Sequence record: PX880101.1
Direction: 5' to 3' (one strand)
DNA length: 64,000 nucleotides
From: a phage
Below the pieces are notes generated by a model. That model worked only from the letters and a program-made list of their open reading frames with translations, was not told the DNA's origin and searched no databases. Positions 28,736 to 41,056 of this stretch are shown here, in pieces. The translations under genes were made by a program, and so were the position numbers. Position 1 is the stretch's first letter. Every line of letters starts with the position of its first letter.

Positions 28736-28795
28736 TAAGATGTGAGTATAAAGGGGAGGCACTCCTCCCCACAAAAACTAAGGAAGCACTAAACG

Positions 28796-29098
28796 ATGAA
28801 ACGTTATAAACCATACACTTTTGAAATCGATTTCGAACTTGACGATATGTTTACTGTGGAAGCTCAGGCAGTTGTCCAGTTGCCAGACTCGGAGTGCCGT
28901 GACTCTGATGTTGACTATTACGGGTTTAGACAAATTACCGATGTGCGTGTTTACCACAACGGTGAAGAGGTGGACTTCCACCAACTGCCAAACGATATGC
29001 GCCACTCAATTTACAAACGTGCAGCCCGTGAACTAGAGTCCTATCTGGATGCAGCGACGACAGCAGCTGCATTTGCTGAAGAAGTGGGAGGTTTCTGA
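28796..29098 (+). CDS. hypothetical protein
   Basis: 100-aa ORF, RBS aagga, preceded by a GC hairpin. Confidence 0.5.
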   Translation: MKRYKPYTFEIDFELDDMFTVEAQAVVQLPDSECRDSDVDYYGFRQITDVRVYHNGEEVDFHQLPNDMRHSIYKRAARELESYLDAATTAAAFAEEVGGF

Positions 29099-32930: not shown

Positions 32931-35360
32931 ATGAGCATGTGGTCGTTCGATTTTGAGTCATCCGGTTTGCTGGAAGACCCAGATCTTTATTATCACTGCG
33001 GTCTGTTTAAAGAGCTGAATAAGAACCGTTTTATGCTGTTCCTTCCTCTAAATGACCGCACACACTACTCCGAGGAGGATATAGAAAAGGCTAAGAACTT
33101 CATTCTGGCAAAGAAAACTCTTTATAAAGATTTTGAAGTTCGCATAGCAGATTTTTCGGAGTTGGAAGGTTGGCTTACAGGCAATTCCGACTGGTCACCA
33201 ACAGCTTTGAACTGCCATAACTGCTACAGTTATGACTTTATGCTGATGGAGAGATTGTCCGGTATTCATTTTGATATGTTCCGTGATCCTAAATGCATGG
33301 GGACTATCAACGACCACCAGGTTAACCTGTTTGATACGTTGGCGATGAGCCGAATTTTGTGGCCTGATCGCCCTCTACCAAAAGGTTGTCCGGACGCTGT
33401 ATTCAACCCGGTTACTAAGAAAATGCAGCCTGTTGGTCCTCACGGCCTTATGGCATGGGGCTACGCCCTTGGTAACCAGAAAGTTCAAATTGATGACTGG
33501 CGCGATCTTCCGTTGTGGAAGTATGTGGATCGTGTATTCGAGGACGTTATCATCCAGGAGCTGCTCTGGAAAGAGCTGGTAGCGGAATCAAAAGGTGTAT
33601 TCTACGGCAAATCTGACATGCAGAACTTTATGTACGATCCTGCCAAAGAGAAGCCGAAAGGGTTCAAGAAGATCACCTGGAAGAACGCATTACGCCGGGG
33701 TATGCTGCAGCACTTCCTGATGGAGCTGCAGGCCCGTCAGGGTGTATATTTCGACATAGATGGAGCTATTGCTTTACGTGACCGTTGTGATGCGTGGATG
33801 AAAGAGATCGCTGATCGTGTTGAACCTCAACTTCCTTTAAAAGAGTTGTCAATGTCTCAGCGGCCCAAGTTCCCTGAAAAGCCGTTTAACCAAGATGGGA
33901 CAATCTCCAATAATGGTTGGAAATGGTTAAAAGATAAGCTTGGCTATCCTGTGGACATGAGCGCTTTAGAGTTCAAAGCCCCACCTAAGCGAGCATTTAC
34001 CTCCACAGGGGATGTCAGTAAGATGGGGATAAAATGGTGTGAAGAGATGGGCTGTAAAGACCCTGATAAGATGGCTGATTTCTTGAGGGGCTATATTAAG
34101 GGCACCTCCACACCACAACCTTTACCTAAAGAGCTAATGGATCAGGCAATAAGTGATCTACAGCAGAAGCGAATGCCTGACTGCAAGATACCTATGAAAA
34201 TCAGCAATCAGGACGACATTAAGCGATACCTGATCAGTGCTGGTTGGCTTCCGACAATGTGGAGAACTAAGGATGTAACTAAAGACAGCAAGAAGAAAGC
34301 TCTACCTGATGCAGATGTTGATGCACGAGTATATGCATATATGGACGAGCTTTTAGAGTCAGAGTATTGTGACCTGATTATCAACTTCTGGAACAAAACT
34401 GATGCTAAGTTCCAGACAACCGTGCACAAGTTCCGAAGCTTTCCTAACTCCGAAAGGATTAAAAAGGAAGTATTCGGGAAAATACGTAGAAAAGCCAGGG
34501 CACTTATTACTTCTCCGCAACTGAAAGATACGTTTGGACACCTATGTCCGAATCTTGAAAAATTGAACGGAGAGATGGCTAAAGATATCGTCTTGTGGTT
34601 ATCCTTGCGAAACCGCAGATCGGTCCTTGATCCAATCAAGGAGGATAAGGTTGATACTGGTCTTCTTAATCACCCACGTTTGAAGATTGACCATAAGCTT
34701 CCTGCTAAAAGTTCTGGATTAACAAACACTTCCCGACAGAAACACAGTATTTGTGCGAACATGCCTAAACCATCTCCTAAAGTGGTTATGGGTAAAGAGA
34801 TGCGTAGTCTGTGGGGTGTTCCTCCAGGATACTTTGAGATTGGTATTGACGGGTCCAACTTAGAGCAGCTTATCGGGGCTTGGGGTGCCTTTGAGTTCGA
34901 CAACGGCTTGTATTATGATGTTGTAAGTAACGGGGACGCACACCAAAACAATGCTGAGGCATATACAAAAGTAGCAGGTAGAGAGGTGTCTCGTAACGAC
35001 GGTAAACCTATCACGTATGGGGTTATGTATGGGGCACAAAAAGATAAAGTTGCAGATATGCTGGACATCTCTCCAGAGTTGGGACAAAGGGTAATCGATG
35101 CACTCTGGGATGCCAACCCAGGTCTTAAGGGGCGCAAAGAGGATCTGGAGAAATTCTGGGAAGCAACAGGTAAGAAGTTTATCTACTCTTTTGATGGTCA
35201 TGCTATCTGGACCCGATCTAAACACTCTTTACTTAATGCATACCAACAAAATGGCGGTGCATCGTTGTGTGACTTAGTTGGAATACTCATGCACCACCAG
35301 ATGGTGAAGCGTGGGTGGTACGATGAAGGTGTTCGTCGTATTATTTATTACCATAAATAA
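32931..35360 (+). CDS. family-A DNA polymerase, 5' exon with 3'-5' exonuclease and polymerase motifs A and B (inferred splice donor after 35354)
   Basis: Exo I FDFESSGL; motif A IGIDGSNLEQL; O-helix region RNDGKPITYGVMYG; the ORF stops at …RRIIYYHK* exactly where motif C (HDE) should follow. Confidence 0.75.
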   Translation: MSMWSFDFESSGLLEDPDLYYHCGLFKELNKNRFMLFLPLNDRTHYSEEDIEKAKNFILAKKTLYKDFEVRIADFSELEGWLTGNSDWSPTALNCHNCYSYDFMLMERLSGIHFDMFRDPKCMGTINDHQVNLFDTLAMSRILWPDRPLPKGCPDAVFNPVTKKMQPVGPHGLMAWGYALGNQKVQIDDWRDLPLWKYVDRVFEDVIIQELLWKELVAESKGVFYGKSDMQNFMYDPAKEKPKGFKKITWKNALRRGMLQHFLMELQARQGVYFDIDGAIALRDRCDAWMKEIADRVEPQLPLKELSMSQRPKFPEKPFNQDGTISNNGWKWLKDKLGYPVDMSALEFKAPPKRAFTSTGDVSKMGIKWCEEMGCKDPDKMADFLRGYIKGTSTPQPLPKELMDQAISDLQQKRMPDCKIPMKISNQDDIKRYLISAGWLPTMWRTKDVTKDSKKKALPDADVDARVYAYMDELLESEYCDLIINFWNKTDAKFQTTVHKFRSFPNSERIKKEVFGKIRRKARALITSPQLKDTFGHLCPNLEKLNGEMAKDIVLWLSLRNRRSVLDPIKEDKVDTGLLNHPRLKIDHKLPAKSSGLTNTSRQKHSICANMPKPSPKVVMGKEMRSLWGVPPGYFEIGIDGSNLEQLIGAWGAFEFDNGLYYDVVSNGDAHQNNAEAYTKVAGREVSRNDGKPITYGVMYGAQKDKVADMLDISPELGQRVIDALWDANPGLKGRKEDLEKFWEATGKKFIYSFDGHAIWTRSKHSLLNAYQQNGGASLCDLVGILMHHQMVKRGWYDEGVRRIIYYHK

Positions 35361-35630
35361 CATTGTGGCTTCATAGAGTAATCTATGTCGAATAACCTCT
35401 TTAACTGCGGGAAGCCTAAACCTTATGGCAAGGTAATCCGCAACGAAGCGCTCAAAAGAGCGAACGCTCAGAGGCCATTCCGAAAGGAAGTAGACCAGCA
35501 AGTGCGGTCGAAATGGGAGGATTCCTGTGGTTGCTTATCATAGGAATATGAGATGGTCCGATCCTACGTGAAAACGTATGGCTATGCACGTAAAGGTGCG
35601 GGGTAGCTTAACGACCTACCTGAACTATTG
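35355..35630 (+). ncRNA. group I self-splicing intron (276 nt, no internal ORF) within the DNA polymerase gene
   Basis: 5' exon ends in U (35354), intron ends in G (35630); guide sequence CAUU|GUGG (35361-35368) pairs with both exon ends; P-like CUGCGGGAAG (35405-14), Q-like AAUCCGCAACG (35435-45), P7 GACCA (35493-97) with UGGUC (35554-58); splicing restores …YYH-DEYQLQV…. Confidence 0.7.
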
Positions 35631-35984
35631 GATGAGTACCAACTTCAAGTCCCTGACACACCGAAGTATAAGACTGTGTACACCTTCGACACAATCGAAG
35701 AACTGGAAGCATTTAAGGCAGAGCAGGAGGCCAAACTTCATGTGTTCGACGGTCATAAGTACAAAAAGGCACGCAAGGATGAGGACGGAAACGAAGTGGT
35801 TGACAGAGACGGAAACACGGTGTACGATCCTATCCTGAATGATGACGGAAAGCTTGAACTTATCTGGAGCCCTGTGGGTGAAATGGTGGTGCATTGCTTC
35901 TGGCAAGCTTCTAAAATGATGGGCGTCCCGTTCCAGATCACAGGTGAATACTTGTGTGGTCGTAATTGGGGTGATTGTCACTAA
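35628..35984 (+). CDS. family-A DNA polymerase, 3' exon with motif C and C-terminus (coding sequence inferred to begin at 35631)
   Basis: Begins DEYQLQV (motif C HDE after joining to exon 1) and ends …GRNWGDCH, resembling the T7 DNA polymerase C-terminus …GPNWAICH. Confidence 0.7.
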   Translation: MDEYQLQVPDTPKYKTVYTFDTIEELEAFKAEQEAKLHVFDGHKYKKARKDEDGNEVVDRDGNTVYDPILNDDGKLELIWSPVGEMVVHCFWQASKMMGVPFQITGEYLCGRNWGDCH

Positions 35985-39178: not shown

Positions 39179-40446
39179 GCGTTATTCAACAATTCGCTAA
39201 CCCGATGAATCCGCGTGAAACTGTTTTACTGGCTCACGGCATGATTAAACGCGTCAGCATCAAGCCTATCAAAGGTGCTGATCCTACAACAGGTATTAAA
39301 ACCACTGTGTGGCAAGGTAAGAAAATTGAGTCCAGCCACACCATCTCTTTACTGATTTCTGAACTGGATTCCTCTGATAACCTACTTCAAGGTGGTGAAG
39401 AAGTTTGGATCAGTATGGGCGATAAGCTGCTTAAACCGGGTCATCAAGACTCTGTCTCTGTTAAAATTGATGACAAGTGGGAAACCGTAACGCCAGGATG
39501 GATCGTAAATATCCCTTTGAAGGCAAACGAGCATAACGGTAAGACCTACTACAAAGGCTCACTGGCTAAGATGGTTAAGCTGGGTGCAGGAGAGACTCCA
39601 GCAGCGACTCAGCAGCAAAAACCGCAACAAGGTGCACAATCACAAGGCCAGAAGCAGAAACCTCAGCAGAATGCCAATCAGGACGTTTTACGCATCTATG
39701 GTGATGTGACTCAGATTGTTGGCAACGTGGTTACTGTTAATGACCACAAGATTGGCGAAGGTGCTATGGTTGTAACTGATGAGCAGCTTAAAGACCTGGT
39801 GGTAGGTGGTCGTGTTGCAGCCATTGTTGACAAAGACACCGGAAACATTATCAGTGGTTTCAAAGCCTATCCTCCTAAGGCAGAGAACGGTACTCAAGGC
39901 TCTGGTGGCAAGCGTAAATCCTCTTACGACCCTATCGGTGTGGAAACGGGGCATAGCATCAATGCGTTGCAAATCATCCTGGATCGCGGGTTTAAGGTAG
40001 ACGACCCACTAGGAGTGGCTAAAACACTACACGTAGTCACTATTGAGCTTAAGAAAGAGTATGCTCAAGCCACCAACCGAACTGAAGATGAAGTAGGTGC
40101 CAGTGTCGGTAATGCGGTGTTGAACGCTTGTCGCCGTATTGACAAGAAAACGAAAGTTGATGATTTTGCAGCGGCAATTACTGCAGAAGCAAAAGATGTC
40201 TTGACTAATCTGGCTGAGCCGTTGTACGATTGGATCAAGAACGGTGCTGGGTCAACTGACCATCAAGAACCTCAGGCTGCCAAACAGGAAGCAGCTCCAC
40301 AGCAAAACACTGTAGACGCTCCTCCTGTAAATGATGGGGAAGATGACCCGATGGATCAGAATCCAGCACAGTATGACTTCTGTGATGACATACCTTTCGC
40401 TCCGGTAGGTCTGCAATATGGTAAAAGTAGAATCTACGCATTGTAA
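39175..40446 (+). CDS. putative ssDNA-binding/replisome accessory protein with Gln-rich linker
   Basis: 423 aa; low-complexity [26 protein letters not shown] linker; acidic …DFCDDIPF motif near the C-terminus recalls acidic-Phe tails of T7 replisome proteins; function unproven. Confidence 0.3.
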
Positions 40447-41041
40447 GAGGTGCATCAAGTGCGGAGAGGTGAAAAACCTCTCCGAGTTCTACAAACATCC
40501 AAAGATGGCTGACGGTCATCTTAATAAGTGCAAAGAGTGCTGTAAGAAGGCCAGCAGAGAGGCTGACCAGTTTTCCCACGACTCTTCAGAAAAAGGTGTA
40601 ATACGCGTGCTGTACAAGGCTCAAAAGTGCAACAGCAAGCAAAGAGGTCACCCTCCTCCGACTTACACCAAAAAAGAGTTTAAGGAGTGGCTATACCTGA
40701 ACGGTTACAAAGAGTTGTATGATCAGTGGGTAGCCAGCGGATACGACAAAAGGAAAAAGCCTTCTTGTGACAGGATAGATGATTTCAAAGGGTACTCTTT
40801 TGATAATATCCGTTTAACAACCTGGGGAGAAAATAAAGACAAGCAGACGGAGGATATTCTGTTGCATAGAAGCACCAGCGGTAGACGGTGTAAAAATGTA
40901 AGGAGGCTGGACATGAATGGCAACGTTCTTAAAGAATGGGTATCCCACAATTCTTGTAGAAGAGAAACCGGAATATGTGTTGATTACTACATTCATGAAA
41001 AAATTCCAGCTCCCGATGGATACCTCTATGAATACTTTTAG
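40418..41041 (+). CDS. HNH/zinc-finger homing-endonuclease-like protein
   Basis: N-terminal [19 protein letters not shown]…[11 protein letters not shown] zinc ribbon; later [26 protein letters not shown] resembling HNH-type nuclease motifs; overlaps the upstream gene by 29 nt. Confidence 0.45.
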
Positions 41042-41056
41042 CACCTAACTGACATA

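Follow-up and report, generated by a model that had tools for sequence, protein, structure and literature searches.

The locus analysed here is a family-A DNA polymerase gene that is interrupted between the His and the Asp of motif C. The locus lies in a phage DNA stretch of 64,000 nucleotides (the window) that represents an rV5-like E. coli myovirus (Vequintavirus), the best record match amounting to 97.6% over 15 kb. The ORF list contains, as the first-pass annotation had stated, a frame at 32931-35360 that encodes 809 amino acids and terminates with ...RRIIYYHK directly before a stop codon, and a downstream frame at 35628-35984 that can be read from a TTG start as MDEYQLQV... to ...GRNWGDCH. 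The elements of the locus are as follows:

32931-35354, + strand: exon 1 of the polymerase gene, 808 codons ending with ...IIYYH and including motifs A and B (ORF list)
35355-35630, + strand: IA2 group I intron of 276 nt, devoid of an endonuclease ORF (Rfam, intron-less allele, covariation)
35631-35984, + strand: exon 2, encoding DEYQLQV...GRNWGDCH and including the stop codon of the polymerase gene; its first two codons specify the catalytic Asp and Glu of motif C

The segment 35355-35630 on the plus strand is very probably a functional group I intron of subgroup IA2 in the Vequintavirus family-A polymerase gene. Joining position 35354 to position 35631 restores an open frame of 925 codons that reads ...IIYYH|DEYQLQV..., as had been proposed, and the gap of 276 nt is preceded by an exon ending with U35354 and terminates with G35630. 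The exact junction was demonstrated by the intron-less allele L004, the exons of which are 96-97% identical to those of the window and the alignment of which stops at 35354 and restarts at 35631. The insert itself carries an in-frame UAA codon at 35358-35360, only two codons after the junction, that ends translation of the unspliced RNA, and further stop codons are present in all frames. Two checks suggested by the first-pass annotation, a covariance-model scan and a polymerase alignment, both supported the assignment. The scan of the whole 64-kb window against 4227 Rfam families returned RF00028 as the sole match, located at 35345-35580 and covering the full model from 1 to 253, with 64.7 bits (E = 4e-14) compared with a gathering score of 50; five homologues score between 70 and 91 bits. 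A phmmer comparison of the joined protein with T7 DNA polymerase yielded an E-value of 9e-16 with motifs A, B and C all aligned, and the alignment runs unbroken over the junction (rriiyyHDEyql versus aymawvHDEiqv). Exon 1 contributes GIDGSNLEQL, corresponding to GIDASGLELR of T7, and RNDGKPITYGVMYGAQ, corresponding to RDNAKTFIYGFLYGAG of T7. The protein accordingly contains the three motifs and the catalytic Asp and Glu residues of a family-A polymerase, and its Pfam DNA_pol_A score of 31.8 bits is just under the curated cut-off of 34.3. Additionally, the sequence RRIIYYHDEYQ is invariant in six metagenomic homologues encoded by one contiguous ORF, and homologue P0001 shows 100% identity to the predicted spliced product (293-aa query).

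The fold of the intron was assigned helix by helix, and all elements are located on the plus strand:

35351-35368, + strand: P1, CCAU|AA (35351-35356) paired with the guide UUGUGG (35363-35368)
35361-35364, + strand: guide part CAUU of P10, pairing with GAUG at the very start of exon 2 (35631-35634)
35372-35387, + strand: P2 hairpin CAUAGA-GUAA-UCUAUG, 6/6 pairs compensatory, 100% of cells paired
35396-35401, + strand: P3 5' strand CCUCUU, pairing with 35515-35520, 100% paired, three pairs compensatory
35406-35466, + strand: P4-P6 domain (Rfam match and homologue alignment)
35406-35411 and 35437-35442, + strand: P4, UGCGG(G)/(U)CCGCA
35414-35417 and 35431-35434, + strand: P5
35421-35422 and 35427-35428, + strand: P5a
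35444-35445 and 35465-35466, + strand: P6
35449-35462, + strand: P6a hairpin of 14 nt, the site of the HNH gene in relatives
35473-35477, + strand: P7 5' strand GGCCA, pairing with UGGUC at 35554-35558 and forming a pseudoknot with P3
35478-35489, + strand: P7.1, UUCC-GAAA-GGAA
35490-35492, + strand: GUA linker between P7.1 and P7.2
35493-35509, + strand: P7.2, GACC.GC/GC.GGUC, covarying
35515-35520, + strand: P3 3' strand GGGAGG (covariation alignment)
35521-35547, + strand: P8 hairpin, AUUCCUGUG / CAUAGGAAU, 6/7 aligned pairs compensatory
35554-35558, + strand: P7 3' strand UGGUC
35563-35581, + strand: P9, with a GAAA loop and one bulged U
35585-35600, + strand: P9.1
35601-35621, + strand: P9.2
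35630, + strand: terminal (omega) G at the 3' splice site

The guide sequence CAUU|GUGG at 35361-35368 pairs with both exons as predicted by the first-pass annotation, namely with GAUG in P10 and with CCAU in P1. The six pairs of P1 are invariant in 13/13 homologues, including the wobble pair U35354.G35365 that places the last base of exon 1 at the 5' splice site. The omega G at 35630 is likewise invariant in 13/13 homologues, and the four base pairs of P10 are paired in 48/52 cells of the homologue alignment. The earlier assignment of P4 (UGCGG/CCGCA) also stood. The minimum-energy fold (z = -2.53) recovers all helices except the pseudoknotted P7.

The published definition of subgroup IA2, as given in PMC3428280, is the presence of P7.1 and P7.2 between P7 and the 3' strand of P3, joined by G-U-A. 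The window contains precisely this P7.1-GUA-P7.2 arrangement, with P7.2 supported by covariation. The earlier proposal of GACCA as 5' strand of P7 had to be revised, as this sequence belongs to P7.2 and the actual strand is GGCCA at 35473-35477. The helix GGCCA/UGGUC is paired in 65/65 cells with one covarying pair, occurs in homologues also as GACUA/UAGUC and GACCA/UGGUC, and is structurally pseudoknotted with P3, guanosine binding being predicted. The rejected combination of GACCA (35493-35497) with UGGUC is paired in 80% of cells, compared with 100% for GGCCA, and shows no covariation. The sequence GACCA at 35493-35497 does pair with UGGUC in the window itself.

Near the 3' end, the P9.0 interaction was tentatively assigned to GAU (35560-35562) and AUU (35627-35629), just 5' of the omega G. 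A long helix predicted by RNAalifold (alignment A2, columns 279-285 with 352-358), which links J7/9 and the 3' strand of P7 with exon 2 and the end of the intron, was judged to be an artefact because the predictor cannot draw the P3/P7 pseudoknot; its inner three base pairs were kept as P9.0. Two peculiarities of the window copy were apparent: P9 is one base shorter than in most homologues, resulting in the bulged U, and P6 comprises just two base pairs beside an A.C mismatch that is a G.U pair in other introns.

Covariation was demonstrated in an alignment of 13 homologous introns from six phage groups, all of them located at the same H|DE codon junction. The proportion of paired cells was 96.6%, in comparison with 35-41% in slid controls, this pair count being derived from an alignment that was partly steered by our own structure and in which we chose the excision points of the ORF inserts. 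Compensatory changes with both sides altered were detected in 41/76 pairs, and a covariation score as high as that observed was reached in 0/500 shuffles. Helices P9, P9.1 and P9.2 are paired in 99-100% of cells with compensatory changes, and the helices are thus maintained by compensatory substitutions in the manner of group I introns. Covariation is silent on the pairs of P1 and on most of those in P4 and P7, since these do not vary.

According to the proposed mechanism, one pre-mRNA would be transcribed from the polymerase gene, and the intron would fold into a P1-P10 ribozyme core. Free guanosine would attack 3' of U35354, which is held by the guide as the U.G wobble of P1, and the freed 3'-OH of exon 1 would attack after G35630, with P10 (CAUU/GAUG) aligning exon 2. 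The ligated mRNA, with the predicted junction ...TATTACCAT|GATGAGTAC..., would direct synthesis of a single 925-aa polymerase in which His808 and Asp809-Glu810 rebuild motif C and from which the junction-spanning peptide IIYYHDEYQLQVPDTPK is predicted. Unspliced RNA would be read to the UAA codon at 35358-35360 and would yield an 809-aa protein without the carboxylates of motif C. The ORF-less copy is one of several forms in which a polymorphic mobile element occurs. Catalysis by the window copy is to be expected because it belongs to the group I family and because splicing of the homologous intron of the Pectobacterium phage CB7 was seen by RT-PCR.

The same ORF-less intron of 276 nt, in the same gene and at the same junction, is present in rV5 (NC_011041), RudolfGeigy (MZ501102), MaxTheCat, LL12, O157 typing phage 5 and others. 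Its sequence recurs with 99.3-99.6% identity in 23 deposited phage records, so that there is essentially no difference between the window and the rV5/RudolfGeigy group, with 2-4% divergence in the flanking exons. The intron had been described as apparently unannotated, which does not hold in general: at least the RudolfGeigy record joins the polymerase CDS, and the protein QXV84155.1 is the exact product of splicing at 35354|35631. The expectation that annotations would show two polymerase fragments is borne out by the rV5 RefSeq entry and several other records, which additionally list spurious small ORFs, and the rV5 genome paper reports a '775-aa' polymerase and mentions no intron except that of the terminase. 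The identification is correct, and since the intron is annotated in sister phages it is an ordinary finding. Its practical value is that the rV5 reference and many related GenBank records need a join at 35354|35631.

More distant homologues with the same H|DE junction and the same core helices occur in CB7 (CB7_50; Certrevirus) and in APECc02-type vequintaviruses. The CB7 intron (CB7_50, between CB7_51 and CB7_49) is 74.9% identical over 73% of the intron, and it is spliced in infected cells as determined by RT-PCR and Sanger sequencing (PMC7344957). The CB7 and APECc02-type introns carry an HNH_3 gene in the P6a loop and have a total length of 687-842 nt, whereas P6a of the window is a hairpin of 14 nt. 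Compared with the APECc02/JEP1 form, P5 and P7.1 are shorter and P8 is longer in the window.

It is unlikely that the intron is genuine and removed in vivo but does not self-splice autonomously, its folding depending on ongoing translation or on a protein of the host or the phage, although several observations would suit such a dependence. The periphery is minimal, with a short P5, a P6 of two base pairs and a bulge in P9, splicing of the CB7 homologue is known from RT-PCR in vivo only, and efficient in vivo splicing of the T4 introns, for which Sandegren and Sjoberg 2007 is listed among the references of PMC11878797, reportedly needs translation of the pre-mRNA. On the other hand, the window intron has a full catalytic core that scores above the Rfam threshold, and the IA2 polymerase introns of PhiI and W31 studied by Bonocora and Shub in 2004 are said to self-splice in vitro. 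The same is stated for the IA2 polymerase intron of Pf-WMP3 in PMC3428280.

A dead intron remnant or a split gene, the 809-aa and approximately 118-aa polypeptides of which assemble post-translationally as reported for the split NrdA of Aeromonas phage Aeh1, is very improbable. Compensatory changes preserve the ribozyme fold in six phage groups, which is not to be expected of a dead remnant; moreover, the CB7 homologue at the same site is spliced (PMC7344957), and the break would sit between the His and the Asp-Glu of the catalytic motif C. Both pieces are nevertheless open frames, exon 2 being readable from TTG 35628, the polymerase is annotated as two fragments in several GenBank records, and non-splicing HNH insertions that split genes of phages are known, with Aeh1 NrdA cited and CB7_245 reported as unspliced (PMC7344957). 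The TTG codon at 35628 was rejected as start of a separate C-terminal protein, as the frame continues from exon 1 once the intron is spliced out and no purine-rich ribosome-binding sequence was found 5' of it (CCUACCUGAACUAUUG).

There is next to no chance that the interruption reflects an intein, programmed recoding or an artefact of assembly instead of an RNA intron, despite the abundance of inteins in vequintavirus-like replication genes, including three in CB7 (PMC7344957). This reading is refuted by the in-frame stop after two codons, the stops in every frame, the match to an RNA covariance model and the 99.3-99.6% identity in 23 independently sequenced phage records.

The preferred assignment as a functional group I intron places the element in the same ribozyme class, with the same mechanism, as the T4 td, nrdB and nrdD(sunY) introns, which reside in other host genes and with which no sequence kinship was seen. 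T4 is the other classic case of an enterobacterial myovirus, and its nrdB intron displays ORF-less and defunct-ORF states. Residue 881 of E. coli Pol I is the His of the HDE motif. The family-A polymerase introns of the T7-like enterobacterial phages PhiI and W31 also belong to subgroup IA2 and occupy the same polymerase site as the window intron, being reported at 'site 881' by the numbering of E. coli Pol I (PMC3428280). They contain an HNH gene in P6a like the HNH-bearing relatives of the window intron; PhiI and W31 are podoviruses with I-TslI in their introns, whereas the window represents a myovirus with an intron devoid of an ORF. Nicking HNH enzymes are encoded by the polymerase group I introns of SPO1, SP82, Bastille and Pf-WMP3. 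These introns interrupt the fingers subdomain (site 674) rather than motif C, and that of Pf-WMP3 is of subgroup IA2 like the intron of the window (PMC3428280). Group I introns at conserved positions of phage polymerase genes, including those at the motif C site, have been known since 1990-2004, and no new question is opened by the present case.

The earlier statement that the intron has no internal ORF is valid with respect to endonuclease genes, whereas two trivial ORFs, one encoding 52 aa (35385-35543) and the other 86 aa (35578-35838), lie in or overlap the intron. They are listed as hypothetical proteins in the rV5 RefSeq entry (gp222 and gp221, respectively) and were rejected as genes, as they overlie the structured core and are affected by indels among homologues that are not multiples of three. 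The four ORFs 3' of the polymerase gene match only PHROGs of unknown function; no free-standing endonuclease that could act by 'collaborative homing' was found among them, and the RudolfGeigy annotation lists no endonuclease near the polymerase.

No homing endonuclease gene was found in the 276 nt of the window copy, which therefore cannot self-mobilise and is not itself classed as a mobile intron; it works like the splicing part only of a mobile element. Polymorphism of the site was demonstrated within Vequintavirus, which comprises intron-less, ORF-less (276 and ~328 nt) and HNH-bearing alleles, many isolated vequintaviruses being intron-less at the polymerase site. Relatives are intron-less (for example nomo and CarlMeissner), have an intron without an ORF, or possess an endonuclease gene, HNH genes (carried for example by APECc02 and HeinrichReichert) being placed in P6a and LAGLIDADG genes downstream of the P7 5' strand; the endonucleases belong to HNH_3 or LAGLIDADG_2. 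The life cycle of homing endonucleases and introns is well illustrated by this locus, where a single polymerase codon junction shows empty, ORF-less, HNH and LAGLIDADG states among six or more phage groups. It appears rather doubtful that the ORF-less intron is more than a relic of homing and is retained because, in combination with the recoding of codons 1-4 of exon 2, it shields the essential polymerase gene from the HNH or LAGLIDADG enzymes of rivals, or that it gates polymerase expression by the availability of GTP; if the shielding did apply, the intron would be an 'immunity allele' in phage-phage competition, with co-infecting relatives targeting the empty site. A tblastn search with the intronic HNH protein of APECc02 matched 1536 records of a very broad HNH_3 family and was uninformative on kinship with I-TslI or T3 gp5.3. 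A scan of IMG/VR with the P1/guide motif detected eight contigs, none in a T7-like context and all with the exon end ...YH|.

The family-A DNA polymerase gene of this rV5-like vequintavirus is interrupted by a 276-nt group I intron (35355-35630). According to the ORF list, the upstream frame (32931-35360) specifies 809 aa with the C-terminus ...RRIIYYHK*, and the downstream frame (35628-35984) encodes 118 aa from a TTG start (MDEYQLQV...GRNWGDCH). With the splice site marked by a hyphen, the raw sequence reads ...UAU UAC CAU - AAA UAA CAUUGUGG... at 35346-35368 and ...CUGAACUAUUG - GAU GAG UAC... at 35620-35639. Joining of 35354 to 35631 combines 2424 and 354 nt into a single frame of 925 aa that continues as ...IIYYH-DEYQLQV.... 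All coordinates and strings in the first-pass annotation, which had been made by a model from the sequence alone, agreed with the ORF list and the raw sequence. The alignment of the joined protein to T7 DNA polymerase that it had suggested as a check yielded an E value of about 1e-15, with the motif A pair GIDGSNLEQL (window) and GIDASGLELR (T7), the motif B pair RNDGKPITYGVMYGAQ (window) and RDNAKTFIYGFLYGAG (T7), and an ungapped junction (rriiyyHDEyql versus aymawvHDEiqv). Since the alignment runs through the junction, the intron separates the histidine of motif C from the catalytic Asp-Glu pair.

When the junction region was used as a protein query, six metagenomic homologues that consist of a single contiguous ORF were detected, with RRIIYYHDEYQ invariant in all six. 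One of the six, P0001, encoded on the intron-less metagenome contig L004 (1530 nt), shows 100% identity to the product expected from splicing across the 293-aa query. The contig itself shows 97.3% identity to exon 1 and 96.3% to exon 2, and its BLAST alignment ends at 35354 and restarts at 35631. As the flanking bases differ (U/A at the 5' end, G/G-G... at the 3' end), these boundaries are not shiftable. Accordingly, the joined motif C proposed initially is borne out by the 925-aa frame, the gapless T7 alignment and the break in L004. The site is also empty in many isolated vequintaviruses, including nomo, pangalan, O157 typing phage 14, V18, CarlMeissner and DrSchubert.

The covariance-model scan that had likewise been suggested matched the group I catalytic intron family RF00028 at 35345-35580 (+) with 64.7 bits (threshold 50; E = 4e-14) and full coverage of the model; this was the sole Rfam match above the gathering score in the 64-kb window (4227 families). 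The canonical helices were written on an alignment of 13 sequences from which ORF inserts had been taken out, resulting in the following elements.

Structural elements of the intron (coordinates verified)
35351-35356 / 35363-35368, (+), P1
35372-35387, (+), P2
35396-35401 / 35515-35520, (+), P3
35406-35411 / 35437-35442, (+), P4
35414-35417 / 35431-35434, (+), P5
35444-35445 / 35465-35466, (+), P6
35449-35462, (+), P6a
35473-35477 / 35554-35558, (+), P7
35478-35489, (+), P7.1
35490-35492, (+), GUA linker
35493-35509, (+), P7.2
35521-35547, (+), P8
35563-35581, (+), P9
35585-35600, (+), P9.1
35601-35621, (+), P9.2
35630, (+), omega G
35361-35364 / 35631-35634, (+), P10

Standard pairs occupy 96.6% of 920 cells in this alignment, versus 35-41% when the partners are slid by 1-3 columns. 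Both sides changed in 41 of 76 pairs, and the observed covariation score was reached by none of 500 shuffles. P2, P3, P7.2, P8, P9, P9.1 and P9.2 each contain several compensatory pairs, and P1 is invariant. The minimum-energy fold of the single sequence recovered every listed element but the pseudoknotted P7 (z = -2.53 versus shuffles). The P1, guide sequence, P10 and P4 named in the first-pass annotation were right, but its P7, pairing GACCA (35493-35497) with UGGUC, has to be replaced: only 80% of the homologue cells pair, and the complementarity is a chance match in the window sequence. The true 5' strand is GGCCA (35473-35477), which pairs in 65 of 65 homologue cells with covariation. Assignment to subgroup IA2 is based in the literature on a P7.1-GUA-P7.2 arrangement (PMC3428280), which the window intron possesses. 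The RF00028 match, the fold and the exact junction thus support a group I intron at polymerase motif C; the original observation is real and its interpretation essentially right.

Homologous introns occupy exactly the same ...(Y/S/A)YH-DE... junction in several phage groups.

Homologous introns at the motif C junction
Vequintavirus JEP1, JLBYU08: 328-329 nt, no ORF
Vequintavirus APECc02: 842 nt, HNH
Avunavirus 18-1-2: 317 nt, no ORF
Certrevirus CB7, PBES02: 687, 772 nt, HNH
Seunavirus SSE121: 771 nt, HNH
Seunavirus PVP-SE1: 919 nt, LAGLIDADG
Unclassified Vequintavirinae A5-4: 772 nt, HNH
Vibrio phages K412, qdvp001: 253-254 nt, no ORF
Pakpunavirus (Pseudomonas) SPA01: 790 nt, HNH-like

Five ORF-less homologues reached RF00028 scores of 70-91 bits, and the intronic HNH_3 and LAGLIDADG_2 genes were confirmed by Pfam. 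The HNH genes are located in the P6a loop, whereas the LAGLIDADG_2 gene in the intron of Salmonella phage PVP-SE1 (L014, NC_016071; intron at 660-1578) is placed 3' of the P7 5' strand, indicating that endonucleases of two families invaded different loops of a single intron lineage on separate occasions. In the Pectobacterium phage CB7, the intron containing CB7_50 was shown by RT-PCR and Sanger sequencing to be spliced out in infected-cell RNA (PMC7344957, Table 3); this intron, between CB7_51 and CB7_49, is a homologue of the window intron. A Pakpunavirus-like polymerase on contig L023 (IMGVR_UViG_3300015214_000054) carries a 266-nt ORF-less intron from position 1766 at a ...LIAYH-DEAQLEL junction, and the stops in its exon-1 frame only about 25 codons upstream hint at a second interruption.

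Among the Escherichia vequintaviruses, RudolfGeigy and rV5 share 98.1% and 97.6% identity with the polymerase region, and collinearity between the window and RudolfGeigy extends across about 48 kb, with identities of 93-96%. The 276-nt intron is present in 23 records at 99.3-99.6% identity. In the RudolfGeigy record the polymerase is one joined CDS, and splicing of its genome at the equivalent bases reproduced the deposited protein QXV84155.1 residue for residue; the BASEL paper used comparative genomics to set intron boundaries (PMC8594841). The rV5 RefSeq record contains two 'DNA polymerase' fragments and two small hypothetical ORFs covering the intron, and the rV5 genome paper gives the polymerase a length of 775 aa and names introns for the terminase gene only (PMC3606486). 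The small ORFs, 35385-35543 (52 aa) and 35578-35838 (86 aa) in the window, correspond to gp222 and gp221 ('hypothetical protein', NC_011041); one inside the intron and the other overlapping it, they cover the ribozyme core and almost certainly reflect misannotation. The predicted 925-aa product occurs verbatim in NCBI nr and UniRef, where some entries must derive from intron-less alleles. Sister-record annotation and database proteins indicate that the intron was already public, though inconsistently annotated, and the joined CDS and the 23 records contradict its initial description as apparently unannotated. Sixteen unannotated MG0656xx records ('Campylobacter phage D1, A142, C2 ...') are 97-98% identical to the vequintavirus region, intron included, and their Campylobacter jejuni host label looks doubtful.

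With fold, junction and polymorphism of the intron observed directly, family membership and the CB7 experiment suggest the splicing chemistry. The pre-mRNA would fold into the ribozyme, guanosine would attack after U35354, and the freed exon-1 end would then attack after G35630 with exon 2 held by P10, so that the spliced mRNA would be translated into complete polymerase. On unspliced RNA, ribosomes would halt at the UAA that forms the second codon of the intron, yielding a protein without the motif C carboxylates. Efficient splicing may depend on translation or a protein cofactor, a refinement rather than an alternative. Expression of the split gene as two polypeptides is unlikely, because the split would fall within a catalytic motif, no ribosome-binding site serves the downstream frame, homologues preserve the ribozyme fold and the one in CB7 splices. 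The ORF list, the RF00028 match and the near-identity among the 23 records exclude explanations by an intein, by recoding or by faulty assembly.

Because the self-splicing intron proposed here contains no endonuclease gene, the window copy cannot home alone and can spread or be lost only via recombination with relatives. The first four exon-2 codons (35631-35642, GAT GAG TAC CAA) all differ silently from L004 (1151-1162, GAC GAA TAT CAG) at positions 3, 6, 9 and 12, versus about one difference per 35 nt in the rest of exon 2, and among the four it is the U at position 3 that P10 needs. This cluster at the insertion site would fit a tract co-converted along with the intron, selection on P10 pairing or a recoded endonuclease target.

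In E. coli Pol I, the histidine of the HDE motif is residue 881. In this numbering, the polymerase introns of SPO1, SP82, Bastille and Pf-WMP3 are located at site 674, that of phiL7 at site 676, and those of the T7-like phages PhiI and W31, which belong to IA2 and carry an HNH gene in P6a, at site 881 (PMC3428280). The vequintavirus intron therefore appears to share its site, subgroup and ORF position with the introns of PhiI and W31. Records of sister phages already annotate the identical intron, a homologue has experimental validation, and an equivalent site and subgroup were reportedly described for T7-like phages in 2004; the window intron is thus a known element, with the corrected secondary structure and the recognition that the rV5 reference annotation of the polymerase gene is wrong as useful outcomes.

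Elsewhere in the window, a 207-aa ORF (40418-41041, +) matched phrog_1035 'endonuclease VII' (E 9e-41) and had no Pfam match; it is contained in a 655-bp segment (40397-41052) absent from RudolfGeigy, lies about 4.4 kb downstream of the polymerase and probably encodes a free-standing Endo VII-motif homing endonuclease. At about 28791-28799, the window is missing approximately 1.3 kb of RudolfGeigy, including the 'putative N6 adenine methyltransferase' bas52_0070, a segment apparently present in rV5 and in several further relatives. A group I intron core-like sequence, AAUUGCGGGAAA...AAUCCGCAGCGAAG...GUUCAGAGACUA...UAGUCCGAU, was noticed at about 1380-1700 of L016 (Vibrio phage ICP1, MW794141), downstream of the tape measure gene, where it falls between annotated genes in a stretch that itself bears no annotation.
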